A DNA stretch of 63,431 nt from Deltaproteobacteria bacterium (lineage in GTDB: Bacteria; Desulfobacterota; Binatia; Bin18), in NCBI GenBank assembly GCA_009692435.1, contig SHZE01000004.1, forward strand, positions 1-63,431. The letters run 5' to 3'. Of this stretch, positions 7,026 through 46,157 are shown piece by piece. A program made the translations under genes and the position numbers. Under the pieces are notes generated by a model. That model made no database searches. It was not told the origin of the DNA and saw only the letters and a program-made list of their open reading frames with translations. Every line of letters starts with the position of its first letter. Position 1 is the stretch's first letter.

Positions 7026-7065
7026 CAAATCAAAAGGCAAAAGGCAAAAATCAAAAGGCAAAAAT
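7026..7065 (+). repeat. Heptamer tandem array (CAAAAGG/CAAAAAT) x5, downstream arm of the four-helix-bundle cassette
   Basis: CAAAAGG CAAAAGG CAAAAAT CAAAAGG CAAAAAT at 7031..7065. Confidence 0.9.
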
Positions 7066-7066
7066 G

Positions 7067-7450
7067 TTAGGACAGCGACTCGGGCTTTGTGCTTTTGTCT
7101 TTGCCTTTTGCCGTCGCTACTGCTTTCGAGAGCATGGCTCGGAGCTGGGTAGCTTCATCCAGCAGATCTGTCAGCCGTTCTGAAGGAAGAGGGCGTGCGT
7201 TTATCAGTAGGCGCAGCCAATAATGCGATTCGCGCATTTCTTTCAAGGCGATTTGCAGCTTGTGAACAAAATCTCCTTTGGACTCTGCTCCCTGTGCCTC
7301 TTCGTAATTGGCTCCTACTGACGTTGCACTGCGGAGCAGTTGGTCTCCTATTCGTCTTCCAACAAGAGTTCTTGGCAGAGCTTCGACCAACTTGATGACG
7401 CGTGCTCCGTAATCGAGCAGCCGCTCATCAAGCTCCTGGCGGTCCCCCAT
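7067..7450 (-). CDS. Four helix bundle protein (IVP / 23S rRNA-IVS-like, Avd-like fold)
   Basis: 127 aa; QLLRSATSVGANYEEA...SKGDFVHKLQIALKEMRESHYWL is the family signature. Confidence 0.9.
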   Translation of the reverse strand: MGDRQELDERLLDYGARVIKLVEALPRTLVGRRIGDQLLRSATSVGANYEEAQGAESKGDFVHKLQIALKEMRESHYWLRLLINARPLPSERLTDLLDEATQLRAMLSKAVATAKGKDKSTKPESLS

Positions 7451-7490
7451 TTTTGCCCTTTGCTTTTTGCCTTTTGATTTTTGATTTTGC
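7449..7490 (-). repeat. Heptamer tandem array (CAAAAAT/CAAAAGG variants), upstream arm of the cassette, inverted relative to 7026..7065
   Basis: Minus strand: CAAAAAT CAAAAGG CAAAAAG CAAAGGG CAAAAAT|G; the last unit supplies the ATG. Confidence 0.9.
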
Positions 7491-7491
7491 G

Positions 7492-8358
7492 TTACGTCTC
7501 AAGCATCGCCCGCGCCTCCTCTGGCGTCGCCACCTCGTGCCCCATGCCGGTAATCATGCTGACCGCGCGTTGGACGATCTGCGGATTGGTCAACTGTCCT
7601 TCTCGTGCATACTGATAATCCTCCAATCCGATACGAATGTGACCACCAAGACTGACAATCGTCGGCACGAGTGGCAGATTGTCGCCTCCCAGTGTCGCAC
7701 CAAACCAGTTGCAGCGGACGCCTTTTACCATTTCAAGATACGCTTCCAGACTCTTTAGTGATGGTGGCAAACCGAACGGCAGTTCTGGTCCACCTAGATA
7801 GAACTTGAGCAACAACGGTTCGGTCAGGAGCCCTTGATCCAAGCAGATCAACGCCGCACGGAGGAAGCTCGGATCGAAAATTTGTAGGGTCGGCCGTAAC
7901 CCGAGTTCGCGTGAATGTTCGAGAAAGTAACGGATGGTGTCATACGAATTCTTATAAATGAAGCCGCTGCCGTGCACGGTTTTCGTGCGTGGGTCGTAAG
8001 ACACGAGGTTGACCGATCCCATGTCGCCCGCTCCCAAGTCAGGTTTGGTTGCCGGGTCCTTCGATAGCTCGATAAAATGTTGGAACCGTGATGCCGGATC
8101 ATCCCCGAACGGAAATGTTGGCCACAGCAGTGGTTTACATTTCTCTCGTGTGCGCCGATAGACCTCGGCATAGTACGGTACGTCTTGGACCCATTCCCCG
8201 TTTTCTGGATTGCGCACATGAAAATGGATGAGTGCCGCGCCGGCTTTGCAGGTGGCGACCGCGTCATCGGCTATCTCTTTCGGCGTATACGGAATATGCG
8301 GGTTGAGATTGCGCATTGCATTCCCGTTAATTGCCGATTCGATCATGATTTTGGCCAT
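7492..8358 (-). CDS. Beta-keto acid cleavage enzyme family (BKACE/DUF849)
   Basis: AGAALIHFHVR, GGHIRIGLED, EVATPEEARAML. Confidence 0.88.
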   Translation of the reverse strand: MAKIMIESAINGNAMRNLNPHIPYTPKEIADDAVATCKAGAALIHFHVRNPENGEWVQDVPYYAEVYRRTREKCKPLLWPTFPFGDDPASRFQHFIELSKDPATKPDLGAGDMGSVNLVSYDPRTKTVHGSGFIYKNSYDTIRYFLEHSRELGLRPTLQIFDPSFLRAALICLDQGLLTEPLLLKFYLGGPELPFGLPPSLKSLEAYLEMVKGVRCNWFGATLGGDNLPLVPTIVSLGGHIRIGLEDYQYAREGQLTNPQIVQRAVSMITGMGHEVATPEEARAMLET

Positions 8359-8427
8359 ACGTCCCTCCTTAATTGGGCATTGAAATCTAAACCGCTTCTT
8401 ACTCTATTTCCGGCGGGTGTACTAGCA

Positions 8428-8507
8428 GAAAAATCAAAAGGCAAAAGGCAAAAATAGTGGAAGGGGGAGCTCCAAATCCGCAATCTTAAATCCGCAATCT
8501 TAAATTC
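8428..8507 (+). repeat. Two adjacent heptamer arrays (CAAAAGG type at 8428..8455; AAATCC/GCAATCT type at 8473..8507) overlapping the hisF stop
   Basis: GAAAAAT CAAAAGG CAAAAGG CAAAAAT; CAAATCC GCAATCT TAAATCC GCAATCT TAAATTC. Confidence 0.85.
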
Positions 8508-9321
8508 GGACAGGCACTCCGCGTTTGGCAAGGAACTCTTTACACTCACGAACAGTGTATTCACGATAGTGAAAGATCGACGCCGCGAGTGCCGCATCCG
8601 CGCCGCCAGCAGTCAGACCTTCGTAAATATGTTGGAGTGTGCCGACACCACCAGAGGCAATGACTGGAATAGTGACTGCATCCGCAATCGCTCGTGTCAG
8701 TTCAATGTCATAGCCAGCTTTCGTGCCGTCGCGGTCCATGCTGGTCAGCAGGATTTCTCCCGCGCCATACGATTCCATCCGCCGCGCCCATTCAATGGCA
8801 TCGAGACCTGTCGGTGTTCGCCCACCGTGAATGAAGACCTCCCAGGACAGTGGGCCTGGGGGCTGGGGGCTAGGGACTGGATTTTCTGAACTCGAAACTC
8901 GAAACTCGAAACTCGAAACTTTTCGTTTCGCATCAATCGCCACTACGATACATTGCGAGCCGAAACGCTCGGCGGCTTCTTTCACGAACTCCGGACGACT
9001 GACGGCGGCGGTGTTGATCGACACTTTATCCGCGCCAGCATTGAGCAAGTCACGAATATCTTGGACCTCGTGCACTCCGCCACCAACAGTGAGCGGCATA
9101 AACACCGTTTCCGCGGTTCTCCGCACAACATCAAGGATAATTTTGCGCTGTTCGTGTGAGGCCGTGATATCAAGAAAGGTCAATTCGTCGGCCCCTTCTT
9201 CATCATAGCGCTGCGCGACTTCGACGGGATCGCCGGCATCGCGCAGGTCCACAAAGTTCACCCCTTTGACGACCCGCCCATCTTTGACATCGAGACACGG
9301 AATAATGCGCTTACTCAGCAT
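8500..9321 (-). CDS. hisF: Imidazole glycerol phosphate synthase cyclase subunit, with a repeat-encoded loop insertion
   Basis: [40 protein letters not shown]; 273 aa from ATG 9321. Confidence 0.97.
8856..8920 (+). repeat. Heptamer arrays inside hisF: (CTGGGGG)-type x3.5 and (AACTCGA) x4.5
   Basis: 8856..8880 and 8889..8920; translated as [21 protein letters not shown]. Confidence 0.92.
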
Positions 9322-9363
9322 GCCAGGAGTGTTGAAGGTTTCAGGAAAAGAGTCAAGCACTGC

Positions 9364-10278
9364 TTAGGGTTCAAGATGATCCAGCGAGGCCATAGTCGGG
9401 TCCTTTGGCCCCTCGCCTTGCTCCTCTTCGTTTGTGGCCCACACGATTTTGCTGTAATCGAACCGCCCGGACTCGATCATATTAAATTTGACAATCTCAA
9501 AGTAGGGCGAGAGATCAAAGTCTCGTGGAGTAACGAGGCTGTGATGCGGACGGTGAAAGACGAACTGTGACCGCGAGCCATTGGCGAACGAGAGGAGGCG
9601 TTCACGCCACGAGCGGGGGGTGAGCGTGACCGGTTGCGTGGTGATCTGGGGGACTACTGGAAATCCAACGGTATCAAAGGCAGCGGCAATCATACTGGAA
9701 CAAATGACTTGTGTTGGGAGGCGACTACCAAAGTGGAGTGCTTTGCGTCGGAAGCGACGGGGAACAATACTCACCGGAAGAAAATATCGCGCCAGATCGA
9801 AGACATTTTGCAGATCATATTCATGGCCGAGTTGGTGTATGACCTCATCCAGAATATGTTGCACATGATCCTTACGCAGATTGTGCGGACGGCAGACGCG
9901 AATGTTGAGGTTGAGATACTTGGACAACGGCGACACGACGACTCCCCCTTCGACGAGGGCTTCAACTAAGAGATAGTTCGCCTCTTCTCCAAAGGCCGCT
10001 CGCGCTTGGCCAGCTTGAGGGTGGTTCCGTCGGAGTAATTCATCTCCAATGTAGAGCGCGGCATGGGACCAAGAGCTTTGCGTGAGATATTTGATCACCT
10101 CGCTCACGCGCTGTTCACCTTCAAGGAGGATCACGTCCCCCTTTTTAATATGATTTTTCAGTTCGTCTAGATCATTGGGACAGCGTGAGGTGTAGTTCCT
10201 CAGTCGCTTCGTCAAAATCTTGGTGAATTGCCGAATGAGAAAGCGGCGAATGGCTTGCCAGGGAGAAGCGATACGCAT
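9364..10278 (-). CDS. YiiX/YebB-like permuted papain-like (NlpC/P60) amidase
   Basis: KKGDVILL...SSWSHAALYIG...VICSSMIAAAF (His before Cys). Start at ATG 10278; the longer ORF start lies in repeat DNA. Confidence 0.8.
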   Translation of the reverse strand: MRIASPWQAIRRFLIRQFTKILTKRLRNYTSRCPNDLDELKNHIKKGDVILLEGEQRVSEVIKYLTQSSWSHAALYIGDELLRRNHPQAGQARAAFGEEANYLLVEALVEGGVVVSPLSKYLNLNIRVCRPHNLRKDHVQHILDEVIHQLGHEYDLQNVFDLARYFLPVSIVPRRFRRKALHFGSRLPTQVICSSMIAAAFDTVGFPVVPQITTQPVTLTPRSWRERLLSFANGSRSQFVFHRPHHSLVTPRDFDLSPYFEIVKFNMIESGRFDYSKIVWATNEEEQGEGPKDPTMASLDHLEP

Positions 10279-10323
10279 GGTTCCTATTGTAAGAGAGGGA
10301 AGGGTGAGGAGACAAGGCACGGG

Positions 10324-10438
10324 GGCATGGCGTATAGCTCGCTCCCTACGGTCGCTTGATGGCTTGTGGCAGGAGCGTTCTTGCCATAGAGTGAGCGCAG
10401 CAAACGAGCCATGCGCCATAGAGCGAGTGAAGCGAGCG
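10324..10438. repeat. Short intergenic repeat element with a duplicated GCCATAGAG(T/C)GAG motif
   Basis: GCCATAGAGTGAGCGCAG (10383) and GCCATAGAGCGAGTGAAG (10415); GCTCGCTCCCTACGGTCGC nearby. Confidence 0.4.
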
Positions 10439-10453
10439 GGCGGTGTCCGCCGT

Positions 10454-11188
10454 TTAGTGCGGCAGATGCTTCCCGACCAGAATCGCTTCCGCGAGGTTGA
10501 CCGCCCCGGTATACAATGCCCGCCCGACGATGACTCCGCTGATACCGCGTGACTCTAATGGGGCAAGACGTTGAATGTCACGCAACGTCGCCACGCCGCC
10601 AGAAGCGATGACCGGGAGGGCGACCGCTTGGGCAAGGGCGAGGGTGGCTTCCAGGTTGACTCCCTGTTCGGTGCCGTCACGAGCAATGTCGGTATACACA
10701 ATCTCACTGACCCCCATCGCGGCACAGCGTTGCGCCAAATCCACGGCTTCGAGAGTAGTTGTTTCTGTCCAGCCTTGAACGGCAACCTTTCCGCCGCGCG
10801 CATCGATACCAACGGTAATGTGACCAGGAAAGCGTTGACAAGCCGCCGCTACGACATCAGGGTCGCGGTACGCAACTGTGCCAAGGATCATACGGCTGAC
10901 CCCAAGAAATGACAGCCGCTCAATCGCTTCAAGGTTCCGAATGCCGCCACCCACTTGAACAGGAATGGTCAGTGCTCGACAGATGCGCCCGATGACGGCG
11001 GTATTGACGCCTGAGCCAGAGACTGCGCCGTCGAGGTCAACGACGTGCAAACGCTCGGCTCCCTCATTTTGCCAGCGCAGAGCAGTGGCAACTGGGTCAT
11101 CCGAATAAATCGTGGCTTGGTTCATATCGCCTTGGTAGAGGCGAACGCAGTGACCGTCTTTCAGGTCGATGGCAGGGATAACTAGCAT
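10454..11188 (-). CDS. hisA: ProFAR isomerase
   Basis: MLVIPAIDLKDGHCVRLYQG, LHVVDLDGA, YTDIARDG. Confidence 0.97.
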   Translation of the reverse strand: MLVIPAIDLKDGHCVRLYQGDMNQATIYSDDPVATALRWQNEGAERLHVVDLDGAVSGSGVNTAVIGRICRALTIPVQVGGGIRNLEAIERLSFLGVSRMILGTVAYRDPDVVAAACQRFPGHITVGIDARGGKVAVQGWTETTTLEAVDLAQRCAAMGVSEIVYTDIARDGTEQGVNLEATLALAQAVALPVIASGGVATLRDIQRLAPLESRGISGVIVGRALYTGAVNLAEAILVGKHLPH

Positions 11189-11189
11189 A

Positions 11190-11240
11190 GTGGGGATTCG
11201 GGGTTTAGGGGTTGGGAGCTAGGGATTGGTAGGCTAGAGC
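11190..11240. repeat. Degenerate G-rich heptamer array across the hisH 3' end and the hisH-hisA gap
   Basis: TGGGGAT TCGGGGT TTAGGGG TTGGGAG CTAGGGA TTGGTAG; encodes the HisH tail YQSLAPNP and its stop. Confidence 0.7.
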
Positions 11241-11864
11241 TTCTCCCTGTACCAATCGGCCAAAGTTAGAGAGGATACGGAGCCCGATGGACTGGCTTTT
11301 CTCCGGGTGGAACTGGGTTGCAAAAATGTTGCGCCACTGAACGCTCGACGCGAATTCCATCTGGCCGTAGTCCGTGGTGGTGGCAATGATGGCGGGATCG
11401 TCCGGCACTGGATAATAGGAATGGACGAAATAGACGGCAGAGCCTTCGGCGATTCCGTCGAAGTGCGGGAGGCGACGTTTGAGATGGAGCTGGTTCCAGC
11501 CCATGTGGGGAATTTTTCCCCCGTCGAGTTGGGTGGGATCAAACCGCACGACTTGGCCTTTGAGAATATCCAGCCCGCGCACTCGGCCAAACTCAACGCT
11601 TTCTGTAAACAGAATCTGCATGCCCACACAAATACCGAGTAATGGGGTGCCGTTGGCGACGACTCGATACACGGTATCGGTCAGGCCGCATTCGGCCAAA
11701 CCGTTCATGCAAGCGGCGAAAGCCCCAACGCCGGGAAGGACGACTCCTGGAGCGGCCTCAATCCGTTTGGCATCACGGGTCACTTCCGCTGCGTAGCCCA
11801 TTTTCTCAAAGCCCTTCTGGACACTGCGCAAGTTGCCCATGCCGTAATCAATAATGGCAATCAT
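11205..11864 (-). CDS. hisH: IGP synthase glutamine amidotransferase subunit
   Basis: MIAIIDYGMGNL, LGICVGMQ, QFHPEKS. Confidence 0.97.
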   Translation of the reverse strand: MIAIIDYGMGNLRSVQKGFEKMGYAAEVTRDAKRIEAAPGVVLPGVGAFAACMNGLAECGLTDTVYRVVANGTPLLGICVGMQILFTESVEFGRVRGLDILKGQVVRFDPTQLDGGKIPHMGWNQLHLKRRLPHFDGIAEGSAVYFVHSYYPVPDDPAIIATTTDYGQMEFASSVQWRNIFATQFHPEKSQSIGLRILSNFGRLVQGEALAYQSLAPNP

Positions 11865-12040
11865 GCGGGCATTATTCCGGGGGGCGGGGAAAGAAGCAAC
11901 GGGGAAGAGGTGGCGCAGGTGGGCGGCTACCGCAAAGGGAAGAGCGCGATTCATCTCGCGCGGACGTATGGGGGACGGCAGCAGAATTTTAGGGTTTGAC
12001 CGTGGCAGCCATCTTGGGTGGCTCCTGAACTTCTAACAAC

Positions 12041-12089
12041 AACCGCTTTGAGCGGTTCACGTCCCCAAGACCTCCGGCTTTGCCGGAGG
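12041..12089. repeat. Two hairpins resembling an IS200/IS605-type end remnant
   Basis: AACCGC-TTTGA-GCGGTT (12041..12057) and CCTCCGGC-TTT-GCCGGAGG (12071..12089); no tnpA/tnpB nearby. Confidence 0.4.
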
Positions 12090-12208
12090 ATGTTTTATTA
12101 CGCAGCGTATAAAAGAGGCAATGTCGAGCATCGGTGGAAATGATTCTGCCAGCTCTTTCGACTTGTCATCCACCAGTCTGCTCGCTACAGTGCCTCTCGG
12201 AGAGCGAG

Positions 12209-12475
12209 ATGTGAGAATTTGAGTGGGACGAGGAAAATGAAGAAAAGGTTCGTTTCCATGCCGTCGCACCTGAAGAAGTCGAGCAATGTTTTTTCAATCG
12301 TCACTTACGAAAACGCAAACCACGGTCAGTTGATCGCTGGTATCTCTTTGGAAGAACGGACGGAGGACGCGCGTTGTTTGTTGTCTACCAAAGCTTGGGG
12401 GGAAATGACGTCCGACCCATAACTGCCTATGATCTCTCGCCTGCTTTCAGAAGGAAATATGGTAAAAGAATCTAA
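12209..12475 (+). pseudogene. BrnT-family toxin, disrupted at codon 2
   Basis: Not in the ORF track. ATG TGA GAA TTT GAG TGG GAC gives M*EFEWDEENEEKVRFHAVAPEEVEQCFFN...RWYLFGRTDGGRALFVVYQ...VRPITAY...YGKRI*; SD GGAG at 12199. Confidence 0.82.
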
Positions 12476-12803
12476 ACGCACTCTTAAACGAATCCCGGCT
12501 TTTCGTTCAGAAGCTGAAGAGGCTCGATGGTACGGGGTGCACCGTGATGACCTTCATGAGTATATGGATATGGATGATGCCGAACTGGTCGAGCCGAAAG
12601 CCAACGGAGACCGAAGTGGTATGACACAGGCCCTCTCTTTGCGGCTGCCACAGCGGTTACTGACTGGCCTGCGCCGCGTGGCAGAACAGCAGGAGATCTC
12701 ATACCAGATGCTGATCAAGCAATGGCTGACGGAACGCCTGGCTCAAGAGAGTGCTCCTTCAATCACCCGTCGACCTCAGAGCCGACGCTCGCGTGCGGCA
12801 TAG
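12459..12803 (+). CDS. BrnA-like / CopG (RHH) antitoxin
   Basis: IPAFRSEAEEA...SLRLPQRLLTGLRRVA...SYQMLIKQWL; overlaps the brnT end. Confidence 0.82.
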   Translation: MVKESKRTLKRIPAFRSEAEEARWYGVHRDDLHEYMDMDDAELVEPKANGDRSGMTQALSLRLPQRLLTGLRRVAEQQEISYQMLIKQWLTERLAQESAPSITRRPQSRRSRAA

Positions 12804-12934
12804 TCAACTCTGTCTCTAACCTTCAGCTCCTAGCCTCAGTTCAGACTTTGAACCACAGAGTTCGAACGCGACACTAAAACGCTCCATCCTCCTGTTTCGT
12901 TCCCTGCCCCTCATTATTCTTCTCTCTCCATTTG

Positions 12935-12962
12935 CCATTCATCATTCCGCATTCATCATTCG
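12935..12962 (+). repeat. Heptamer array (NCATTCN) x4
   Basis: CCATTCA TCATTCC GCATTCA TCATTCG, right after the stop of the TPR relic. Confidence 0.8.
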
Positions 12963-12966
12963 TCGT

Positions 12967-13260
12967 TTACTTCAACCCCGCCTTGCGCAACGCGGCAATA
13001 TGCCGCTCCAACACCGCCGGATCTTTGATCGGCATTCTCTCTTTGTGAACCTCCAATGAGAACTTAGGATTGAGCCGCAGCACTTCTGCGATCTCCGCCC
13101 GCGCCTCGGCTGCTTGGCCTAACTCACTGTAGACTGCGGCCAGCATGAGATGGGCGCCCAGAATGTTGGGATAGTGGCTGACATAACGCTGCAAAGGAGC
13201 AATCGCCTCTTCGGGCCGTCCTGAGTATTGACCAGATAGCGAGCGCCAGCCGTCACGCAC
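12967..13260 (-). pseudogene. C-terminal TPR relic of an adenylate cyclase-TPR protein
   Basis: EEAIAPL...HLMLAAVYSELG...EARAE.AEVLRLNP.FSLE...ALRKAGLK is a typical end of such proteins; no N-terminal part. Confidence 0.7.
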
Positions 13261-13501
13261 TTTCTCCCAACTCAGCTAGGAACTCCTCCGGGCTTTTGAG
13301 TCGCCCGTCGCTATTGTGAGAATCGCGAAAGCGCATCCACTCCAGATAGTCACGCACGTCTTCTACATTCTTGAACGCCGCCCACTGGCCGTATTTGTCG
13401 TGCAGCAACTTGCTTAATGCGCCAATCAGCCGCGAGAGGTCTTCCGGCGCCAAGGTCTCTGCCTTGGCTAAAACGTCTTGATAGGTTTCCTGTGGCTCCA
13501 C
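13253..13501 (-). CDS. Small hypothetical protein, antitoxin-like
   Basis: 82-aa ORF, helical N-terminus (YQDVLAKAETLAPEDLSRLI) and acidic C-terminus; family not recognised. Confidence 0.55.
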   Translation of the reverse strand: MEPQETYQDVLAKAETLAPEDLSRLIGALSKLLHDKYGQWAAFKNVEDVRDYLEWMRFRDSHNSDGRLKSPEEFLAELGESA

Positions 13502-13589
13502 AATCTTTTCTTTTCTAGAAGGATAGAGGTAGATTATCCAGTCATTCTGCTTAACTCAACCTCGACAACTCGTCATCGAGCTCGATCAC

Positions 13590-13677
13590 TTAATGGCTCG
13601 ACTCTTCCAGGAACGCTTTCGCCTCTTGCAAGTCCTTGGTGTCAAACCCTTCGGTGAACCAGCCGTAGATCTCACTC
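13590..13677 (-). pseudogene. Orphan 3' tail of a STAND cyclase gene
   Basis: SEIYGWFTEGFDTKDLQEAKAFLEE; 13618..13670 matches 20171..20223 at 48/53 nt. Confidence 0.8.
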
Positions 13678-15009
13678 GGCCTCTTTGGGATACCGGTCTC
13701 ACATGCCATTTTCCGTTCGCCATTTGGGACGCTGGTCGCTGCCAGCTCCACGTTGCCTCCGAGCGGAGATATTTCTGGTGCCTGCCCGCCGTCGCCTCCT
13801 CTCGCTGATCCGTGTGCGACCAGTGTGATTGTCGGTTTGCCGATCTCCAGCCGCAGCCCGTTCCCCCTCTTGATGTTCTCGCACGGAGCCAACCTGGATC
13901 CCCACTTCTATGTCAGCCTGACCGAGTATCTTGCGAGTCACGGCTATATTGTTGTGGCTCTGGAACACACCGGCAACCGACTTGTGGACAATTATGCCCT
14001 CGGCCTAACGGGGTTCGGCTGTGAGACATTGCCGATCAGGCCCTGCAGGGACGCGAATACGAAGAGCGCGGTAGACCGCCCGCACGATATCCGCTTTGTC
14101 CTTGATCAGGTGCTGGCTGGCAATGCCGGCGTGGCTCCAGCAGTGATCGATGCAGACCGCATTGGCATGTATGGCTACTCCTCTGGCGGCTCTACTACGC
14201 TCGCTGTGGCGGGAGGGACGGTCTCCGGTGCGCTGCCAGACCGTCGCATCAAGGCGATTGCCCCCCTCTCCCCCTCGGCCAGTGTCTTTGCGGCGTTTCT
14301 CGATCCCGAGCTGGTCCCGCTGACCGGGAACATTGAGGTTCCCACACTCGTCTCATTCGGAAAAGCCGACATTACTGCCGGCATCAACTTTGTGGACGAG
14401 GGACGGGAGATTTTTACCGACCTGGACACGCAGGCAGTGGGAGAAAAGTATCGGGTCGAGATTCAGCGCGGAGTGCACATCGGATTCACGGATATCTGCG
14501 CCTTTCTCGCCGGGAACCTGGAGGCGATTCAGCACGGGAACGCCAGCCCACTTGATCCGATCAACCTTCTTGCGTTTCTCACCTTCGACGGCCAACTCCC
14601 GCCGTCGCCACCAACAGCTCTTGGCAAGAGCAGAGACGGAGCGCAGGCGATCTGCTCATCTGACCTGTTCTACCGCCCCGACAATTTTGCCGTGTGGAAT
14701 GCAGTGACCCTATTTCCACCGGCCCCGCCGATTCCGCTTTCGGCTTTCCTGTTTCCTCCAGATCAGATTCCGGGCTATATCGACGCGAACTCAGCGTATA
14801 CCCCGTCGTTAGCGAGCAGCAAGCATCTACAGATTGTGAACACGTATGTGGTCGCCTTCTTCAACCGACATCTCAAAAAGGACTTGCGCTACGTCTTCTA
14901 CCTCTTGCCGCTGTATGCAGAGTTCAAACAACCCAATGCCGAAGTCGAGTTCTGCAAAGCGAGCCGACATGGCAAAAAAGAGTGGTGCGTCGATAACATC
15001 ACAGAATGA
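13678..15009 (+). CDS. Alpha/beta hydrolase (PAF-acetylhydrolase/dienelactone hydrolase-like), probably 5'-truncated
   Basis: FSHG, GYIVVALEH, GYSSGG nucleophile elbow; the frame stays open upstream to the cyclase-tail junction without a good ATG/SD. Confidence 0.7.
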   Translation, partial: GLFGIPVSHAIFRSPFGTLVAASSTLPPSGDISGACPPSPPLADPCATSVIVGLPISSRSPFPLLMFSHGANLDPHFYVSLTEYLASHGYIVVALEHTGNRLVDNYALGLTGFGCETLPIRPCRDANTKSAVDRPHDIRFVLDQVLAGNAGVAPAVIDADRIGMYGYSSGGSTTLAVAGGTVSGALPDRRIKAIAPLSPSASVFAAFLDPELVPLTGNIEVPTLVSFGKADITAGINFVDEGREIFTDLDTQAVGEKYRVEIQRGVHIGFTDICAFLAGNLEAIQHGNASPLDPINLLAFLTFDGQLPPSPPTALGKSRDGAQAICSSDLFYRPDNFAVWNAVTLFPPAPPIPLSAFLFPPDQIPGYIDANSAYTPSLASSKHLQIVNTYVVAFFNRHLKKDLRYVFYLLPLYAEFKQPNAEVEFCKASRHGKKEWCVDNITE

Positions 15010-15049
15010 CTTGAAATGGGGAGTGACCATGAAAGGGGAGAGTCTACAC

Positions 15050-15655
15050 CTACGGCGCTCGCCACATGCCCCAGATATGCGGCCCCTTCTGGATGTCGCA
15101 TTCTTTCATCACCTTAAAGCCATGCCTGATATAGAAAGGAAGGTTGCGCTCATTGCTTGTCTCAAGGTACGCCGGCACTCTCCCTGCATCGCACCGCTCC
15201 AGCACCGGCCGTATGAGAGTGCTGCCTAAGCCCCTCCCTTGCTCCGAGGGGGCTACGCCGAGGAGGGCCAGATACCAGTGAGGCTTTTCCTTTGGGTGCA
15301 TCTTCTCTATGTGATTGAGATCATGCAACGCCCTCGGCGTCCTCCACAGCCCAAAGATGTGAGGGAACCCGAGCAGGAGGCTCACTTGTTGCCAAAGAGA
15401 AGGTGGGTACTTGCCGGGCGGCAACCAAAGCGCCCCTCCTAGGATAGCTCCGAGCGTGTAGCATTCCTGTTGAGGCAGATAAATCCGTTGCAGGACCATC
15501 CCGAATGCCTGCTCCAGCCTTGCCACCCTGCGCGCCGGATCGGGCAGGAGATGAACGCACATCGGGTCATGCTCGAATGCGCGCGCCAGAACACTCGACA
15601 GCCCTACAGCCTCGGCACTCTCGACTTTACGGGCTGTCGCAACTGCCATACGCAT
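15050..15655 (-). CDS. GNAT family N-acetyltransferase
   Basis: HWYLALLGVAPSEQGRGLGSTL, AYLETSNERNLPFY; SD GGAGGAG before ATG 15655. Confidence 0.88.
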   Translation of the reverse strand: MRMAVATARKVESAEAVGLSSVLARAFEHDPMCVHLLPDPARRVARLEQAFGMVLQRIYLPQQECYTLGAILGGALWLPPGKYPPSLWQQVSLLLGFPHIFGLWRTPRALHDLNHIEKMHPKEKPHWYLALLGVAPSEQGRGLGSTLIRPVLERCDAGRVPAYLETSNERNLPFYIRHGFKVMKECDIQKGPHIWGMWRAP

Positions 15656-15792
15656 GTCTCCTCCCAGTGAATAAGGAGTATTCATGAGCTTCCGTCAACT
15701 ACGCCAATAATAAATCATGTCTATGGCAGCCTAACACCCCAGTCACCGTTTGCCGCCCGAACTGAGACTTTTCACATTCAGTCAGAACCGCC

Positions 15793-15860
15793 GGGTGCCA
15801 CTGCTGGCTTGTCCAGCAGTGTTTGACGTGACACACGGGCAGGCAAGTTGCCTGCGGCAC
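15793..15860. repeat. REP-doublet-like palindromic element
   Basis: CACTGCTGG-CTTGT-CCAGCAGTG (15799..15821) and GCAGGCA-AGT-TGCCTGC (15839..15855), ends GGTGCC / GGCAC. Confidence 0.65.
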
Positions 15861-16023
15861 AACTCCTTTCCTGACTTCTTTCCTTTTGGATGCCACTGGC
15901 GACTTGTTCGTCAGTGCCGAATGCTACCCCTCATGCCATCGCGATGCGATTGAGGCTGCGAAGCGGCAAGTACGGGGAATCCTATGTTCCCTCCTCCCAA
16001 AAAGATGTGCTATCAAAACGGAT

Positions 16024-16272
16024 ATGAGACGATTGAACGTCATGCTTGAGCAAGAGACGTATGAAGCGCTCGAAAGGCAGGCCAAACAAACGCGAAAACC
16101 ATGCGCCAAGGTGGCAAAGGAGATATTGTCGGAGGGCTTGGCACGGCGAGATACCGCTGCTCGACGCGAAAAATTGGCGACAGACTACCGTGCTGGCCGT
16201 GCTGATATGCGAGCCTTGTTGAAGGAACTTGAGTCGTTTCAGTCGGAGCTGTTAAATGACGAAGGAGCCTGA
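16024..16272 (+). CDS. Ribbon-helix-helix antitoxin
   Basis: MRRLNVMLEQETYEALERQAK...AKVAKEILSEGL; directly upstream of mazF. Confidence 0.75.
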   Translation: MRRLNVMLEQETYEALERQAKQTRKPCAKVAKEILSEGLARRDTAARREKLATDYRAGRADMRALLKELESFQSELLNDEGA

Positions 16273-16631
16273 GACGATTGAAATCCGTAGGGGGTGATAT
16301 CCTCTGGATTCAATGCGATCCGTCATTCGGTGTCGAGCCACAAAAGATTCGGACCTGTGTGGTTGTGTCCAATGATATCGCGAATCAGCATGGACAAGCG
16401 ATTACGATTGTTCCCACCCAAGCCTATACAGCGGAACGTGCACGGCGCGCATACATGGTCGACTTACGCACGCCTCGATCTGATTTGAAAGAAGCGCGCG
16501 TCGCGAACGCGTCGATGATTATGACGTATGATCGACGACGCGTCATCAAACGAGCGGGGCGGATTGCCAGAGAAACACAAGACACCCTTGACCAAGCGGT
16601 AAGCCTTCATCTTGGGCTGTCAGTGATTTAA
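16256..16631 (+). pseudogene. MazF/PemK toxin, likely +1 frameshifted at G5 (16290..16294); an alternative TTG start at 16278 is possible
   Basis: ATG 16256 (SD GGAG 16245) gives MTKEPETIEIRRG*; removing one G gives ...IRRGDILWIQCDP..G.E..K.R.CVVVSND. Confidence 0.7.
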
Positions 16632-16816
16632 GGTCGTAGGGGAAATCTCCCAGCTACGTACGGTCGCGCGGATGCGAACCTCGACGGCGATGGAAGGAGT
16701 GGACTTCTCGGTTGCTTTCCTTGCCCCGCCTGACACGGGATGGTAGAAGGAACCCGGCGCTACGCTTGTCGGAATCGACAGCCAGTGACCTGAGTTACTG
16801 TGAGGAAGGAGTCAAT

Positions 16817-24982: not shown

Positions 24983-26282
24983 GGGCGCCTCCATTGAGAC
25001 GATACTGCACTGCACGCGCATGGGCCTCAAGCCCCTCCATCTCCGCCAAGCGGATAATCTGCGGACCCAGGGTGGCTAACGCACGTGGTGAGGCTTCGAT
25101 GACACTGGTGCGTTTGAGGAAGTCGTAGACACCAAGAGGTGAAGAGAACCGCGCGGTCCCGCCAGTCGGCAGTACATGATTGGGACCAGCCATGTAGTCA
25201 CCAAATGGTTCAGTGGACCAATGACCAAGGAAAATTGCGCCAGTGTGACGGATGTCTTTGAGCCACGACCGTGGATTCTTGACGGCCAACTCCAGATGTT
25301 CTGGTGCCAGGGCATTGGCGAGAGCAACAATTTCCGCACGGTCACGAGCAATGATGACGGCACCGTGACGTTTAAGTGAGGCTTGGGCGATGGTGCGACG
25401 AGACAGCGTCACTAGTTGTTCGGTGAGCGAGTGGACAACCGCAGTTGCGAGCTTCTCTGATGTGGTGAGACAGAGCGGCGCGGCGAGTTCATCATGCTCA
25501 GCTTGTGACAGCATGTCCGCCGCGACGTAGTCGGGAGAGGCACTGTCATCGGCAATGACCAAAATTTCACTGGGCCCCGCAACCATATCAATATCAACTT
25601 GTCCAAAGACCAGCCGTTTGGCGGTCGCCACGTAAATGTTCCCCGGACCAACGATCTTATCCACGCGGGGGACGGTTTTGGTGCCGTAGGCGAGGGCGGC
25701 CACCGCTTGCGCTCCGCCAATACGAAAGAAGGCGTCCGCACCAGCGAGCGCCGCGGCCGCGAGAATACCGGGATGGTACCCCTGGGGAGAGGGCGGAGAG
25801 ACGACAATAATCTCTTTCACGCCCGCGACTTTGGCGGGGATCACATTCATCAACACCGAGGAAGGATAGGCGGCTTTTCCACCGGGCACGTACACGCCCG
25901 CTCGTTCCAGCGGCGTAATCTGTTGTCCCAGTGTCACGCCGAGTGGGTCACGATAGGACCACGAATGCTGTCGCTGTTTATTGTGGAAGGTGGCAATACG
26001 TTTGGCCGCGGTTTGTAATGCTGCCCGGTCGGCGCGCGGGAGGGTATCAAGCGCGGCGGCCATCTCGGCTTTGGTGACGTGTAAAGAGGCGGGTGTCAGA
26101 TGGACACGATCAAATTGTTTGGTATAGGCACACAGCGCGCGGTCGCCGGTCTTTTTCACCTGCTGGAGAATTTCTCGCACGCGCGTTTCGACTTCAGCGC
26201 CCGCCGATTCTCCGCGCGTCAATAACTGCTGCAATCGGCGTTGATAGGTGGGGTCCGTCGTTCTCAGTAAGGGGACAATCAT
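24936..26282 (-). CDS. hisD: Histidinol dehydrogenase
   Basis: YVPGGKAAYPSSVLM, IDMVAGPSE, GDYMAGPNHVLPT; overlaps hisB by 47 nt. Confidence 0.97.
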   Translation of the reverse strand: MIVPLLRTTDPTYQRRLQQLLTRGESAGAEVETRVREILQQVKKTGDRALCAYTKQFDRVHLTPASLHVTKAEMAAALDTLPRADRAALQTAAKRIATFHNKQRQHSWSYRDPLGVTLGQQITPLERAGVYVPGGKAAYPSSVLMNVIPAKVAGVKEIIVVSPPSPQGYHPGILAAAALAGADAFFRIGGAQAVAALAYGTKTVPRVDKIVGPGNIYVATAKRLVFGQVDIDMVAGPSEILVIADDSASPDYVAADMLSQAEHDELAAPLCLTTSEKLATAVVHSLTEQLVTLSRRTIAQASLKRHGAVIIARDRAEIVALANALAPEHLELAVKNPRSWLKDIRHTGAIFLGHWSTEPFGDYMAGPNHVLPTGGTARFSSPLGVYDFLKRTSVIEASPRALATLGPQIIRLAEMEGLEAHARAVQYRLNGGAHGHTGTHRDTASKNR

Positions 26283-26336
26283 GCAGGAACTTTACGGTGT
26301 GAGGCGGAGAACGTAAAGCGCGACGCGGAGGCGGGC

Positions 26337-26392
26337 GTTGGGAGTTGGGCTTTGGGGGAGACACTCAGAATCCCAAATCCGCAATCCCAATT
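26337..26392. repeat. Inverted heptamer arrays between murA and hisD
   Basis: GGAGTTG GGCTTTG GG... then CAGAATC CCAAATC CGCAATC CCAATT; GGAGTTGGGCTTTGGG is identical at 44865..44880. Confidence 0.75.
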
Positions 26393-26398
26393 TTTTCT

Positions 26399-27667
26399 TC
26401 ACTCTTCACTCTTCTCCTTGACCCTGCGAATGTCCGCGCCGAGATGCGAGAGTTTTTCTTCAATCCGTTCATATCCGCGATCGAGATGATAGACCCGCGA
26501 GACTTCAGTCGTTCCCTGTGCCGCAAGCCCGGCCAGAATTAACGACACGCTGGCGCGTAAGTCTGTTGCCATGACGGGGGCGCCACTGAGAAAAGCCATG
26601 CCGTTCACAGCCGCAGTGTTCCCCCGTGTCAGGATATTGGCTCCGAGTCGTGCCAGTTCTTGCGCGTGCATGAAACGGTTCTCGAAGACGGTTTCGGTAA
26701 TGAGGCTACGGCCATCTCCGAGTGTCAGGAGGGCCATCATCTGCGCTTGGAGATCAGTCGGAAAGCCGGGATAGGGCCAGGTGATCACATCAACACTCAA
26801 GGGTCGACCTTGGCACGACGCTTCAATGCCATCCTCTCGTTCAACAATCTGGACACCCGCGTCTTGGAGTTTGTCGAGAAAGGCGCGCAAATGATTTGCT
26901 CGTGCGCCACGGACGAATACGCGGCCCCCAGTGATGGCACCAGCAATGAGAAAGGTGCCCGCTTCTACGCGGTCGGCAACGACCTCGTGAGTGACACCAT
27001 GGAGGGTTGTGACTCCATCAATCGTGATCGTTCCTGTGCCTGCTCCACTGATGCGTGCTCCCATCGCATTGAGCATCGTTGCTAAGTCTTCAATCTCCGG
27101 TTCGCAGGCGGCGTTTTCAATGACTGTTGTTCCTTCAGCGAGGGTGGCGGCCATGAGGATATTTTCGGTCGCGCCCACTGAGGGAAACTCAAAGACAATA
27201 TGTGCCCCGTGCAGGCGTTTCGCCTCGGCTTCGACGTAGCCTTGTTGGTGGCGGATCGTCGCTCCTAATTGTTGCAAGGCATCGAGATGGATATTGACCG
27301 GACGCGTGCCAATCGCGCAGCCTCCCGGCGTGGACACCCGAGCACGACCAAAGCGCGCCAGCAGTGGACCGAGTACCAAGAACGACGCGCGCATGGTTTT
27401 GACTAAATCATACGGCGCTTCGCACTGGTGGACGGTATGAGGAGAGATCACGATCTCATCTTCACTCAGCCATTCGCTTTGGGCTCCGAGTTCATGCAGT
27501 AAGCGTACGGCGGTCCGAATATCCATGAGCCGGGGAACACGACGCAGGCGACATTCTTCCTGGGTCAACAGGGAAGCAAAAAGTAATGGCAGCGCGGCAT
27601 TTTTTGCACCGCTGACGGTGACCTCACCTCGTAACGGCACCCCACCCCGCACAACGATCTTATCCAT
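26399..27667 (-). CDS. murA: UDP-N-acetylglucosamine 1-carboxyvinyltransferase
   Basis: [34 protein letters not shown]. Confidence 0.97.
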
Positions 27668-27897: not shown

Positions 27898-28857
27898 TCA
27901 GTTCTTTTGCGCCGCGACCACCCGGCCAACGCCCGCGTAATCGGGCACGCAAAAGCCATTGGCGAATCCGGTATGCTCTTTAAGCATGGACATGAGGACA
28001 GCCTCTTGTCCGTCGCCGATCTCCAGTACTAGCCAACCGTTAGTCGCGAGGTACTCGGGTGCTTCGTTCAAAAATTGGCGGTAAAAATCGAGCCCATCTT
28101 CTCCACCATCAAGGGCATGCCGTGGCTCCCAGTCTCGGACCTCCGGTTGCAGGGTCAGTAGGTCGCTGCGGGTGATATACGGTGGGTTGGAGACAATCAA
28201 AGCAAACAAGTGGCCCTGGTGAGTAACCGGCGTAAACAAAGAGCCTTGCAGGAAATGGATACGTTGGTGAACGCTATGTTGCTGCGCATTGGCCGTTGCG
28301 ACAGCGAGCGCATTCGCGGAAATGTCGGTTGCCCAGATCTCGGCGGCAGGCAGCTCGGTGGCGAGGGCAATGGCAATGCAGCCGCTGCCAGTGCCAATAT
28401 CGAGAATACGGGTGGGGGGTTGGGACTGATGAGGATTTGGGATTTGGGAAAGGAAGCGTAAGGCAGTTTCGACGAGGAGTTCTGTCTCCGGGCGGGGAAT
28501 CAGCACACGCGAGTCTACCGCGAACTCCAATGACCAGAACTCTTGTATGCCGGTAATGTACTGTACTGGTTCATGTTGGAGGCGGCGGGAGAGTATCTGT
28601 TGAAACGTGGCAATCTGAGGGAGGGACAGCACGGTATGAAAACGAGCGTAGAGCCCGGCGCGATTGATGCCAAGGCTGTGGGCCAGTAACACTTCGGCAT
28701 CAAGCTGGGGAGTTGTCAGGCCCAAGGCCATAAGCTCGGCTTCGGCCCAGGTGAGTACCTGGGCGAGGGTGGCATTGGATGGGGAGAATATATTGTGGGG
28801 ACCTGTTGCTGCCCCATTGCTGCTACTGACAGCTCTCACTCGCGACTCGGAACTCAT
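27898..28857 (-). CDS. prmC: Release factor glutamine methyltransferase
   Basis: VLIPRPETE, LDIGTGSGCIA, VSNPPY. Confidence 0.95.
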   Translation of the reverse strand: MSSESRVRAVSSSNGAATGPHNIFSPSNATLAQVLTWAEAELMALGLTTPQLDAEVLLAHSLGINRAGLYARFHTVLSLPQIATFQQILSRRLQHEPVQYITGIQEFWSLEFAVDSRVLIPRPETELLVETALRFLSQIPNPHQSQPPTRILDIGTGSGCIAIALATELPAAEIWATDISANALAVATANAQQHSVHQRIHFLQGSLFTPVTHQGHLFALIVSNPPYITRSDLLTLQPEVRDWEPRHALDGGEDGLDFYRQFLNEAPEYLATNGWLVLEIGDGQEAVLMSMLKEHTGFANGFCVPDYAGVGRVVAAQKN

Positions 28858-37149: not shown

Positions 37150-37177
37150 TCACTCGTTACTCGCTACTCGTTTACTC
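37150..37177 (+). repeat. Heptamer array (NNACTCG) x4 between the DMFase subunit genes
   Basis: TCACTCG TTACTCG CTACTCG TTTACTC. Confidence 0.75.
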
Positions 37178-39930: not shown

Positions 39931-39951
39931 GGGGGGACTCCTTGTCAGGTC

Positions 39952-42437: not shown

Positions 42438-42468
42438 GAGAAATGCTTTCTCCGAAAAAGAGGCAAGG

Positions 42469-42503
42469 CAAAAGTCAAAAGGTAAAAATCAAAAGGCAAA
42501 AAT
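42469..42503 (+). repeat. Heptamer array (CAAAAGG/CAAAAAT) x5, with no enclosed gene
   Basis: CAAAAGT CAAAAGG TAAAAAT CAAAAGG CAAAAAT. Confidence 0.88.
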
Positions 42504-43069: not shown

Positions 43070-43191
43070 GGTTTGACCTCTCATCGGGTTTCATCCTAGC
43101 GCCCGAAAGAACTACGAGGTTCATAACGAAGCGAGCGGTCCAGAACAAGAGAGCACCTCATTGTCTTATCCTCTGCAAGCCAGCGTTTCAG

Positions 43192-43221
43192 TTGACACGC
43201 TGCGTCTTTCTATCCTACTGT
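43192..43221 (+). promoter_or_regulatory. Putative sigma70 promoter of the thiolase operon
   Basis: TTGACA-18 nt-TACTGT, 20 nt before ATG 43242. Confidence 0.5.
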
Positions 43222-43241
43222 GCCGCGCGGGAGGACTGACT

Positions 43242-44420: not shown

Positions 44421-44424
44421 GCGC

Positions 44425-44847
44425 ATGGCGGAATACAAAAAACCTTTACCAGCGATTTCTTCACTCAGTGAACCCTATTGGACGGGACTCAAACATCGTG
44501 ACCTCAAACTCCAACGCTGCAACGACTGCCAGACGCTGTGGTATCCACCGGGACCATTCTGTCCGGGCTGTTGGTCGCGCACCTTCACGTGGCAGAATCT
44601 CAGTGGGCGCGGGAAAGTCAACTCGTGGGTGATTTTTCACCAAGCGTATTTCTCCTCGGTCAAGGACGAAATTCCTTACAACGTCGCCGAGGTGGAGCTG
44701 GAAGAAGGGCCGCGGCTGCTGACGAATCTCGTCGGTATCGACAACGCGGATATTAAGATTGGCATGCCGGTGGAAATTGTCTTTGATGACGTGACGGAAG
44801 AAGTAACGTTGGCGAAGTTTCGGCCCCTCGGCGGGGGTAGCAAGTAA
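44425..44847 (+). CDS. DUF35 Zn-ribbon/OB-fold protein
   Basis: LQRCNDC...CPGC, ELEEGPRLLTNLV. Confidence 0.9.
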   Translation: MAEYKKPLPAISSLSEPYWTGLKHRDLKLQRCNDCQTLWYPPGPFCPGCWSRTFTWQNLSGRGKVNSWVIFHQAYFSSVKDEIPYNVAEVELEEGPRLLTNLVGIDNADIKIGMPVEIVFDDVTEEVTLAKFRPLGGGSK

Positions 44848-44857
44848 CGAGTGGCGA

Positions 44858-44924
44858 GGATTTTGGAGTTGGGCTTTGGGAGTTGGCCTAATGACTCGAA
44901 ACTCGAAACTCATTACTCAGAACT
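44858..44924. repeat. Paired heptamer arrays (GGAGTTG/GGCTTTG and AACTCGA)
   Basis: 44858..44885 and GACTCGA AACTCGA AACTCAT TACTCAG at 44893..44920. Confidence 0.85.
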
Positions 44925-44939
44925 GAAGTGGGAGGCCCT

Positions 44940-46091
44940 ATGCCTGGCATTCTCGAAGGAATTCGTGTTTTTGATTTGACGATCGCGGCGGTGGGTCCGT
45001 GGGCGAGTAAGTTGCTTGGGGAACTCGGGGCGGATGTTATCAAAGTGGAAGCTCCAGAAGGGGAGTTGTCGCATGCGATCCCGCCGCCGATCAAAGGGAC
45101 TGCCGTCCTCTACATCTCGGCCAATTTCAATAAACGTCATATCGTGCTTGATCTCAAGAACGAGGGCGACCGCGCCATTGCCCTCAGGCTGGTCGAGAAG
45201 AGTGATATTTTTGTCCAGAATATGCGCCCCGGCGCGGTCGAGCGGTTGGGGCTGGGCTTCGATGTCGTGTCGAAAATCAATCCCCGGATGATTTATGTGG
45301 CAGCTTCGGCATACGGGCGTGTGGGGCCGATGGCGAAGGAAGCCGGGATTGATCCCCTCCTGCAAGCGTTTTCCGGTTGGTGCAGTATTACCGGTCAGCA
45401 AGGCGGGGAAGGAGAGATGTTTCGCCACCTCGCGCACCTCGACATCTCCACAAGCACAATGATTGTGGAAGCTGTCCTGCAAGCGCTGTTGGCCCGTGAG
45501 CGGACCGGCAAAGGCCAGAAGATCGAGATTGAAATGCTTGCTGGTGCCTTGTCGTTGCAGACCAGTCGCCTCGCGGAATACTTCGCGACTAATGAACAAC
45601 CGAGGCCAATGGGCAGCGCGGTGACGACGACCGTGCCGCATCAAGCGTTCCGGTGTGAAGATCAACAATACCTTGCCGTTGGCGTGGTGAGTGAGGATCA
45701 ATGGCCACGCTTTTGTCGAGCGCTGAAACTTGACGATTTGTGTCTCGATTCCCGCTTCGCGACCAACCCACAACGAGTGAGGAATCGCGCCGAGTTAATT
45801 CCGCTTGTTGAAGCACGGTTTCGCACCAAACCGGCGGCCTGGTGGGCTATCCGTCTCACGAAAGAGCAAGTGCCGAACAGTCGCATCATGGATTTTGAGG
45901 GACTGCGGCATCACCCGCAAGTGCTGCAAAACCAGCAGATTGTGGAATTACAGACTCCGCATTGGGGGGCGCTGCAGGTCGATGGCTTGCCGTGGAAGTT
46001 CGAGAAAACACCAGCGGGCCCGATTCGCCCAGGCGGACTGAAGGGGGAGCATACTGACGAGGTGTTGCGGGAGTTTGGGCTTATCGAGTGA
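44940..46091 (+). CDS. Family III CoA-transferase, subunit retaining the catalytic Asp
   Basis: VFDLTIAAVGP, NFNKR, AHLDISTS. Confidence 0.88.
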   Translation: MPGILEGIRVFDLTIAAVGPWASKLLGELGADVIKVEAPEGELSHAIPPPIKGTAVLYISANFNKRHIVLDLKNEGDRAIALRLVEKSDIFVQNMRPGAVERLGLGFDVVSKINPRMIYVAASAYGRVGPMAKEAGIDPLLQAFSGWCSITGQQGGEGEMFRHLAHLDISTSTMIVEAVLQALLARERTGKGQKIEIEMLAGALSLQTSRLAEYFATNEQPRPMGSAVTTTVPHQAFRCEDQQYLAVGVVSEDQWPRFCRALKLDDLCLDSRFATNPQRVRNRAELIPLVEARFRTKPAAWWAIRLTKEQVPNSRIMDFEGLRHHPQVLQNQQIVELQTPHWGALQVDGLPWKFEKTPAGPIRPGGLKGEHTDEVLREFGLIE

Positions 46092-46109
46092 GGCCGGGGC
46101 ACTGAGGGG

Positions 46110-46157
46110 AAAAAGTCAAAAGGCAAAGCGCAAAAGTCAAAAGGCAAAAGTGAAAAT
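46110..46157 (+). repeat. Heptamer array (CAAAAGT/CAAAAGG) x6 abutting the ATG at 46158
   Basis: AAAAAGT CAAAAGG CAAAGCG CAAAAGT CAAAAGG CAAAAGT GAAAAT|ATG. Confidence 0.88.

Follow-up and report, generated by a model that had tools for sequence, protein, structure and literature searches.

Tandem arrays of 7-nt units (heptamers) are spread through the genome of a Candidatus Binatia bacterium, one contig of which (SHZE01000004.1, analysed over its whole length of 63,431 nt and hereafter called the window) was the starting point of this analysis. A first-pass annotation of the window had described the arrays as a multi-family system. Many of them proved to be arms of ordered two-arm elements with fixed polarity, and at four loci the arms enclose a gene for a four-helix-bundle protein (PF05635/TIGR02436). 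With moderate confidence, the arrays are interpreted here as junction elements resembling the intervening sequences (IVS) of ribosomal RNA (rRNA), which would have spread by copying and then been altered by slippage and decay.

Period-7 excess and two-arm anatomy

The genome (G000) comprises 2.14 Mb in 109 contigs with 56% G+C and is ~83% complete; the window is its contig C19. Counts given below refer to the whole genome unless stated otherwise. Tandem Repeats Finder (TRF) returned 1,196 rows, which were collapsed to 1,046 arrays. Of period 7 there were 408, compared with 59 of period 6, 125 of period 8 and 145 of period 9. A second-order Markov simulation, made separately for coding and non-coding sequence, gave an expectation of 7 + 34 (~41) period-7 arrays. 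A strict lag-match detector, which scores self-identity at a given lag and nothing else, counted 146 runs for lag 7 and 48 for lag 14; the corresponding counts for lags 6, 8 and 9 were 6, 6 and 13. The first-pass annotation had predicted an excess of period 7 in a genome-wide scan, and an excess of about ten-fold was found. Its description of a multi-family system in which period rather than sequence is conserved also held, as the period-7 arrays fall into 154 canonical units.

The commonest units are AAAAGGC, AAAACGT and AAGAATG, with AAAACGT second in abundance. Copy number per array is flat over 2-5 units and falls sharply above 5. Purines or pyrimidines exceed 70% in 49% of arrays, compared with 3.7% of random 30-mers. 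The longest array (contig C39:8649-8874) is composed of ~32 units, with AAGACAA and AAAGGCA variants grouped in blocks, and a short inverted CCTTTTG arm lies 128 nt further on; it shows block-wise expansion in place.

In the window, TRF called period 7 or 14 at nearly all sites that had been listed before (7031-7063, 7449-7488, 8435-8453, 8474-8505, 8852-8880, 8889-8920, 12936-12961, 22598-22622, 24326-24362, 26333-26356, 26396-26414, 28433-28449, 37152-37170, 42465-42503, 44865-44886, 44894-44911 and 46111-46156). At listed site 11190 an array is present, in degenerate form and with a TRF period of 8. No TRF call was made at listed site 20385, where a decayed G-rich period-7 stretch can be seen by eye. 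The absence of stop codons from CAAAAGG, AACTCGA and CCCCCAG, remarked on in the first-pass annotation, is literally true of these three units and is not general: both strands are free of stop codons in only 45% of intergenic units, compared with 62.5% of random intergenic heptamers, and AAAACGT and AAGAATG contain TAA or TGA. Stop-codon avoidance was therefore rejected as a general property of the units.

Inverted pairs were identified by searching for the reverse complement of each array within 700 nt around it. This gave 79 pairs, with loops of 7-130 nt in 70 of them and of 350-400 nt in a few; about half of the arrays belong to two-arm elements. Neighbouring TRF arrays (at most 90 nt apart) formed 85 pairs, of which 43 were inverted, 41 combined unlike families and one was direct, in agreement with the earlier remark that arrays often occur as two families side by side or as inverted pairs. 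Among the 74 pairs with skewed composition, the purine-rich arm was 5' and the pyrimidine-rich arm 3' in 65 and the reverse in 9 (p=1e-11). Unlike-family neighbours followed the same order (RY, Rn or nY, with R for purine-rich and Y for pyrimidine-rich arrays) in 30 cases versus 1 (p=3e-8), and at loci of other genomes the purine-first order prevailed by 21 to 4. Because the arms are inverted, the polarity is the same on both strands. Unlike neighbouring families are most simply understood as two arms that have drifted apart, with homogenisation acting within an arm and not between arms.

At one further locus (contig C94:23320-23741), arms of the GAAGAAT family surround a non-coding insert of 348 nt with the palindrome GTCATTCCCGCGCAGGCGGGAATCC...GGATGCCCGCCTGCGCGGGCAC. 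This loop appears to hold a nested element of another repeat family.

Cargo cassettes and dispersal of one family

One complete gene-bearing cassette lies in the window. Its parts are as follows (here and below, features without a strand are unstranded):

7027-7065, purine-rich arm with CAAAAGG/CAAAAAT units on the + strand (TRF 7031-7063, 4.7 copies; inverted match to 7449-7488 with score 27)
7067-7450, - strand, cargo gene for a four-helix-bundle protein of 127 aa (TIGR02436, E=3.4e-26; PF05635 listed on the identical product; PDB 2RLD, E=1e-18)
7449-7488, pyrimidine-rich arm with CCTTTTG-type units on the + strand, inverted partner of 7027-7065 (TRF and inverted match)

The arm 7027-7065 separates the cargo gene, whose stop is at 7067, from the next gene, which starts at 7014. 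The ATG of the cargo gene is formed at the inner end of arm 7449-7488, its TAA lies 1-4 nt from the other arm, and its last codons (~7083-7110) are themselves degenerate heptamer units. The related structure PDB 2RLD has 5 chains. An exact look-up of the cargo protein returned only two short contigs, both identical to the window and derived from SRR8561390 and SRR8561391.

Four TIGR02436 genes were found in the genome, one in the window and three on other contigs. All four lie between inverted heptamer arms, with a different unit each time; the units at the three further loci are GAATGAA, GGCAGAA/CTGCCTA and GGTGCTAGGG. All four cassettes sit between protein-coding genes, and none in a helix of 23S rRNA. 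By the same score, arms were present at 19 of 30 TIGR02436 genes in 18 other genomes. As a control, 5 of 524 other small genes of G000 were found between arms, the best of them a GxxExxY (TIGR04256) gene. The copy in the window is the only intact one of the four; damage in the other three takes the form of an in-frame TAG, a frameshift or a C-terminus that has diverged.

The control gene just mentioned is the only GxxExxY gene of the genome (TIGR04256, PD-(D/E)XK-like; contig C22:5844-6230) and lies within inverted arms of ~30 nt with 7-8-nt periodicity (GCTCACGCGGAGACGCAGAGGCGCG / CGCGCCTCTGCGTCTCTGCGTGAGC). It is a second cargo type for the same arm design. Among the stop codons listed inside TIGR02436 matches (contig C24:2300-2683 and relatives), TAG was the most frequent, at 9 loci, compared with about 3 loci for TAA and 2 for TGA; this TAG-rich pattern is probably a sign of decay.

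Copying is visible in one family, AAAACGT. It forms a dispersed element of ~70 nt with a conserved non-repeat loop at at least 9 loci. These loci have the consensus (GCAT)AAAACGTAAAGCGTAAAACGT-AACCACCCCTCC...-TTACGTTTTACATATTKACGTTTTA in common; the arm variants follow one order throughout, and an irregular unit recurs in the 3' arm. The motif at the junction of arm and loop, AAACGTAACCNCYYC, matched exactly 7 times in G000 and 2-10 times per genome in eight relatives from four genera; elsewhere 0-1 matches were found, as with a reversed-pattern control (0-1). Such a pattern cannot be produced by local slippage. Several AAAACGT elements stand directly upstream of a strong AAGGAGG ribosome-binding site and have a CCUCC-like stretch in the loop.

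Location and turnover at gene junctions

The arrays were intergenic in 243 of 408 cases, straddled a gene end in 32 and lay within open reading frames (ORFs) in 133; intergenic DNA makes up 15.6% of the genome. Within spacers, the relative distance to the end was 0.33, compared with 0.5 for random placement, and 38% of spacer arrays were at most 10 nt from a stop codon. The proposed enrichment at gene boundaries was thus recovered, with ~60% of arrays intergenic and near gene ends. Arrays were present at 20.6% of co-directional, 15.5% of convergent and 15.3% of divergent junctions; a preference for junction type was set aside as weak (20.6% versus ~15%). Deep inside ORFs there were 79 arrays; many of these are in genes with strong coding character, and two-array elements are frequent among them.

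The remaining features of the window, all from TRF calls, are listed below.

8435-8505, two unlike arrays, (CAAAAGG)x2.7, an 18-nt spacer and (AAATCCGCAATCTT)x2.3, running into the hisF stop
8852-8920, - strand, in-frame hisF element, (GGGGCTG)x4.1 + (AACTCGA)x4.6 on the + strand, ~20 extra surface-loop residues (also from HisF alignment)
11192-11213, degenerate G-rich array of GGGGTTT type in the 16-nt gap region of two his-operon genes (TRF period 8, score 30)
12936-12961, (CATTCAT)x3.7, 6 nt from the stop of gene 12967-13260
22598-22683, - strand, in-frame arrays in a 1009-aa cyclase/ATPase-like gene, (AGTTCGG)x3.6 + octamer (CCGGTTCT)x3.9
24326-24378, hairpin element 6 nt past stop 24320, (GGGTTCA)x5.4 with the inverted TGAACTCGAAACCC immediately after it
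26333-26414, three arrays in one spacer, (GGGCGTT)x3.4, near-inverse AATCCCA/AATCCGC, and (TCTTCAC)x2.7 over stop 26399
28411-28449, - strand, G-rich heptamer stretch including (GGATTTG)x2.4, within gene 27898-28857
37152-37170, (ACTCGCT)x2.7, 12 nt upstream of start 37140
42465-42503, solo purine-rich array, CAAAAGG family with 5.3 copies, 28 nt past stop 42437
44865-44911, two-array element filling an 80-nt spacer, (GGAGTTG)x3.1 then (ACTCGAA)x2.6
46111-46156, solo purine-rich (AAAAGKC)x6.6, filling its spacer and ending 2 nt before ATG 46158

The element at 8435-8505 occupies the spacer of hisF and the gene 7492-8358, which resembles the 3-keto-5-aminohexanoate cleavage enzyme (kce). Within HisF, the ~20 residues added by the in-frame element form a loop between AIDAKR and WEVFIHGG. 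Aligned HisF proteins of other Binatia have different repeat-derived peptides, or none, at the same loop. The hisF matches in a Geobacteraceae and a Nitrospinota metagenome-assembled genome (L027 and L042), from two other phyla, span 1192 and 1132 nt, the usual span being 760 nt; the extra ~400 nt suggest a large insert or a split gene.

Two 69%-identical paralogs on contig C92 (6425-8845 and 9535-12027) share an in-frame heptamer-derived segment (..SSPEFQVSS.QPLA.SPQPL.PSP..), identical in position and nearly unchanged. This repeat-derived linker has therefore persisted since the gene was duplicated. The composite (GTTTCNA)n(CAGCCCC)n recurring in three genes had been considered as proof of insertion and was withdrawn, as the two C92 genes are paralogs and represent a single old event. 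The window itself contains paralogous adenylate-cyclase/ATPase/TPR proteins of ~1000 aa (2537-5776 and 20146-23175) from a large family with 13 matches in G000 and ~40 in several relatives; the best model for it, a TOMM kinase/cyclase fusion, scored below cut-off.

Orthologous junctions were compared with three genomes of the same genus (G001, G002 and G003), which have ~85% nucleotide identity to G000 in the flanking genes. They contained other unit variants, other families or no array. Relatives have CAAAAGT where the window has CAAAAGG. At the hisF/kce junction (8435-8505) the units differ in each of the three genomes, with an ACGTAAA-family hairpin in G003. The ortholog of 11192-11213 is (GGGGTTA)x3 in G002 and (GAGTTCG)x4 in G001; that of 24326-24378 is a longer version with (AACTCGA)x3 in G002 and unrelated sequence in G001. 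At junction J5, one unit in the window corresponds to four in a relative. Distant Binatia have minimal spacers of 14-40 nt at the compared junctions. This fast turnover was missing from the first-pass annotation, as were the fixed polarity of the arms and the copy-type dispersal of at least one family.

The junction of kce with gene 6481-7014, which carries the cargo cassette of the window, has the full cassette in G000, G001 and G002. In G003 it carries a 40-nt hairpin with the same units, and in distant Binatia it is empty. On the four-gene tree (G000,((G001,G002)98,G003)83), loss of the cargo in the G003 lineage is the more parsimonious course. Upstream of the 6481-7014 ortholog, G001 (contig C17) and G002 (contig C126) have a tandem duplication of ~95 nt, which spans the start region and the CAAAAGT array, so that array plus start codon are present twice.

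Origin of the elements and relation to known systems

The closest counterparts of the cassettes are ORF-bearing IVS of 23S rRNA (Coxiella burnetii, Leptospira, Xanthomonas; S23p). The IVS of C. burnetii has a 28-bp stem around the S23p ORF with tandem GACAGAT heptamers upstream of the ATG; strains differ in the number of these heptamers, the first of which is the site of cleavage by RNase III, and the ORF is in decay (PMC4990558). Inverted repeats around a PF05635/S23p ORF are found here at 7027-7488, at the three further G000 loci and at the 19 of 30 loci elsewhere. Purine-rich tandem heptamers in the 5' arm upstream of the ATG, their variable number and the decaying ORF are likewise shared. 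Unlike the IVS, the cassettes stand between protein-coding genes, and hundreds of gene-less arms accompany them.

The basic element consists of 2-5 tandem heptamers forming a purine-rich arm on the 5' side, a loop, and a pyrimidine-rich arm on the 3' side; a few loops carry a gene, PF05635/TIGR02436 four times and GxxExxY once. In the preferred model, the Candidatus Binatia genome has experienced a lineage-specific bloom of such small selfish junction elements. They spread by copying, after which units are gained, lost and homogenised within an arm. The arms drift apart, the cargo decays or is deleted, and single arms remain. Elements persist where their harm is small: in frame in tolerant protein loops, or flush in the space from a stop codon to the ribosome-binding site that follows it. 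They would be transcribed with the host operon, and paired arms would probably be cut by RNase III, by analogy with IVS. The purine-first polarity may supply the cargo with a Shine-Dalgarno-like leader.

Several results weigh against this model. Neither RAYT/IS200 (PF01797) nor reverse transcriptase (PF00078) was matched in the ~83% complete G000; of 14 control genomes, 6 had PF01797 matches. When compared with MITEs, which have terminal inverted repeats and target-site duplications and derive from an insertion sequence, the AAAACGT copies have inverted arms, and no consistent target-site duplication was seen by eye in 9 aligned copies. Dispersal was observed for this family only, and the majority of the 154 units occur rarely and could be local in origin. 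Junction J5 looks like local expansion from a single unit. The direction of change between filled and empty sites rests on one junction and 83% bootstrap support. RNA folding of 174 array-bearing spacers against 752 others, on both strands, was no stronger and had no sense-strand bias, and it lends no support to selection on the RNA of the sense strand; with arms that often no longer pair, an RNA-level role is unsupported for most copies. Gene calls, and with them the location counts, came from our own crude ORF caller (longest ORFs, scored by codon usage).

As a rival explanation, a dedicated protein-repeat system is possible but unlikely. Here the pentameric four-helix-bundle protein would recognise arrays of ~5 heptamers and promote their formation or spread, for example by guiding a polymerase to add repeats at 3' ends, which would give inverted arms of fixed polarity. 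The PF05635 family is described as forming homopentamers (Lin 2006, as cited in PMC4990558), in keeping with a copy number that is flat from 2 to 5 and then drops. The presence of arms at all four family genes here and at 19 of 30 elsewhere, against ~1% of control genes, fits as well, and AAAAGGC and AAGAATG are both the commonest arm families of cargo genes and among the commonest gene-less families. Across 26 genomes of the Binatia class, four-helix-bundle genes per Mb tracked the density of period-7 arrays (Spearman 0.66, p=3e-4), density being measured in samples of 16-40 kb, or of 20-40 kb if G003 is set aside; this correlation ignores kinship and may reflect two or three clades. All 8 genomes without such a gene had at most 0.5 arrays per 10 kb, and there were two exceptions to the trend: G024 has arrays near hisF and no four-helix-bundle gene, and G011 has 8 such genes and no arrays in 40 kb. 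Against this explanation, three of the four copies in G000 are pseudogenes, and AAAACGT, despite its abundance, has no four-helix-bundle gene with matching arms in the assembly. The protein is without an enzymatic domain, and G000 yielded neither a partner polymerase nor a reverse transcriptase. Joint travel of gene and arms would give the same pattern without binding.

The first-pass annotation had taken the shared period to imply a dedicated generating mechanism. This went further than the evidence: the searches identified no enzyme, and slippage that intrinsically favours heptamers may account for the growth step; a dedicated mechanism is plausible. The search that it had suggested, for HUH/RAYT, reverse transcriptase and four-helix-bundle genes, returned the four genes between inverted arrays and none of the other two. 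A diversity-generating retroelement (with Avd as accessory protein) was not recognised either, with no PF00078 match in G000 and housekeeping genes as neighbours of the four-helix-bundle gene.

Ordinary microsatellites, in which slippage would favour 7-nt units at each permissive site with families, pairs and cargo as by-products, are a distinctly unlikely explanation. Heptamer simple sequence repeats are over-represented in many bacterial genomes, and a slippage bias caused by the polymerase footprint has been proposed for them (Mrazek 2007, as cited in PMC4692102). In-place dynamics are also evident here in the one versus four units at J5, homogenised variants, unequal arms and the 32-copy array on C39. 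Slippage leaves unexplained the purine-to-pyrimidine order (30:1 and 65:9), the inverted pairing, 43 times commoner than direct pairing, and the identical loops and arm-variant order at at least 9 loci and in other genera. The near absence of heptamer arrays from sister genera of the same family is unexplained as well.

Host cis-regulatory arrays at operon junctions (Csp, CsrA or S1-type sites, as such regulators were proposed for TAACTGA repeats, or terminators, attenuators or G-quadruplexes) are very improbable: arrays do abut stops and starts, 46111-46156 forms the whole 5' leader of a gene, AAAACGT elements precede AAGGAGG sites with a CCUCC-like loop, and G-rich units could form quadruplexes (PMC4692102), but rates are similar at all three junction types and arrays also occur inside genes, solo arrays show no strand bias relative to gene direction, a given junction has different units, and even different families, from genome to genome in the genus, a scan of 6401-26400 for consensus terminators and promoters found none at arrays and counts at shuffle level, and an Rfam scan of the window gave no match. 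The spread over junction types, strand neutrality, absence of signals and fast turnover together argue against conserved host regulation and for selfish or neutral elements.

Heptamer excess, in arrays that number about four units and lie near gene ends, has been described for Xanthomonas (GGGAATC) and Nostoc (GGGGAYT) (PMC4692102), for G. metallireducens (GGGACCG elements, some within genes; PMC2700814), and for Beggiatoaceae (TAACTGA), cyanobacteria and Bacteroidetes (PMC4679880). The present arrays share with these the number of units, the period excess, the intergenic position near gene ends with some copies within genes, occasional inverted pairs, and length and sequence that vary between close relatives; they differ in the host phylum (Binatia) and in the 154 families in one genome. 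The three reports consulted describe no polarity rule, copy-type dispersal of arm-loop-arm units or cargo versions. The analogy with cyanobacterial STRR repeats and other bacterial heptamer repeats, drawn in the first-pass annotation, is supported by the period-7 excess and the intergenic location near gene ends. The arrays are not STRR proper, which is defined by particular units of heterocystous cyanobacteria (CCCCAGT, TTGGTCA, CAACAGT): the top units of this Candidatus Binatia metagenome-assembled genome are others, and only the AGCCCCC/CCCCCAG type resembles STRR1. For the HisF locus, the closest named relatives are metagenome-assembled genomes labelled Candidatus Binatia or Deltaproteobacteria, with no cyanobacterium involved.

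Rickettsia palindromic elements, reportedly described by Ogata et al. in 2000, are small palindromic selfish elements that also occur in frame in protein genes. They are comparable in adding surface-loop peptides in frame, and differ in their conserved sequence of 100-150 nt, without heptamer arrays or sequence relation. REP/BIME repeats with RAYT are likewise short intergenic hairpins in hundreds of copies flush at gene ends; unlike them, the elements here have no Y1/RAYT gene, and their arms are tandem heptamers of many families rather than a single conserved palindrome. The phenomenon as such is known. What this genome adds is its lineage (Binatia), the number of families, a rule of arm polarity, dispersal demonstrated for one family, and a junction, filled or empty, that connects gene-less arrays with IVS-like cassettes.

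A more far-reaching interpretation, which we consider decidedly doubtful, would join heptamer arrays, PF05635 genes and rRNA IVS into a single genetic system with the pentameric four-helix-bundle protein as unit-specific cofactor. Templated addition of 7-nt units, comparable to that at telomeres, to both 3' ends of either a break or a linear cassette would then by itself produce inverted arms, one unit per element and purine-to-pyrimidine polarity. If this were true, gene-less arrays would be decayed footprints and the source of the heptamer excess in many bacterial genomes.

The excess of heptamers in bacteria has been known since the 1990s-2000s without a mechanism. Structures have been solved for PF05635, a large family without an assigned function, and the origin of rRNA IVS is unsettled. 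Heptamer excess, PF05635 and the IVS design meet in one genome. It offers testable regularities, namely fixed polarity, dispersal as whole units, a filled and empty junction within a genus and in-frame colonisation of housekeeping proteins. In practical terms, short-read assemblies break at gene junctions because of these elements, and annotated enzymes acquire repeat-derived peptides from them.

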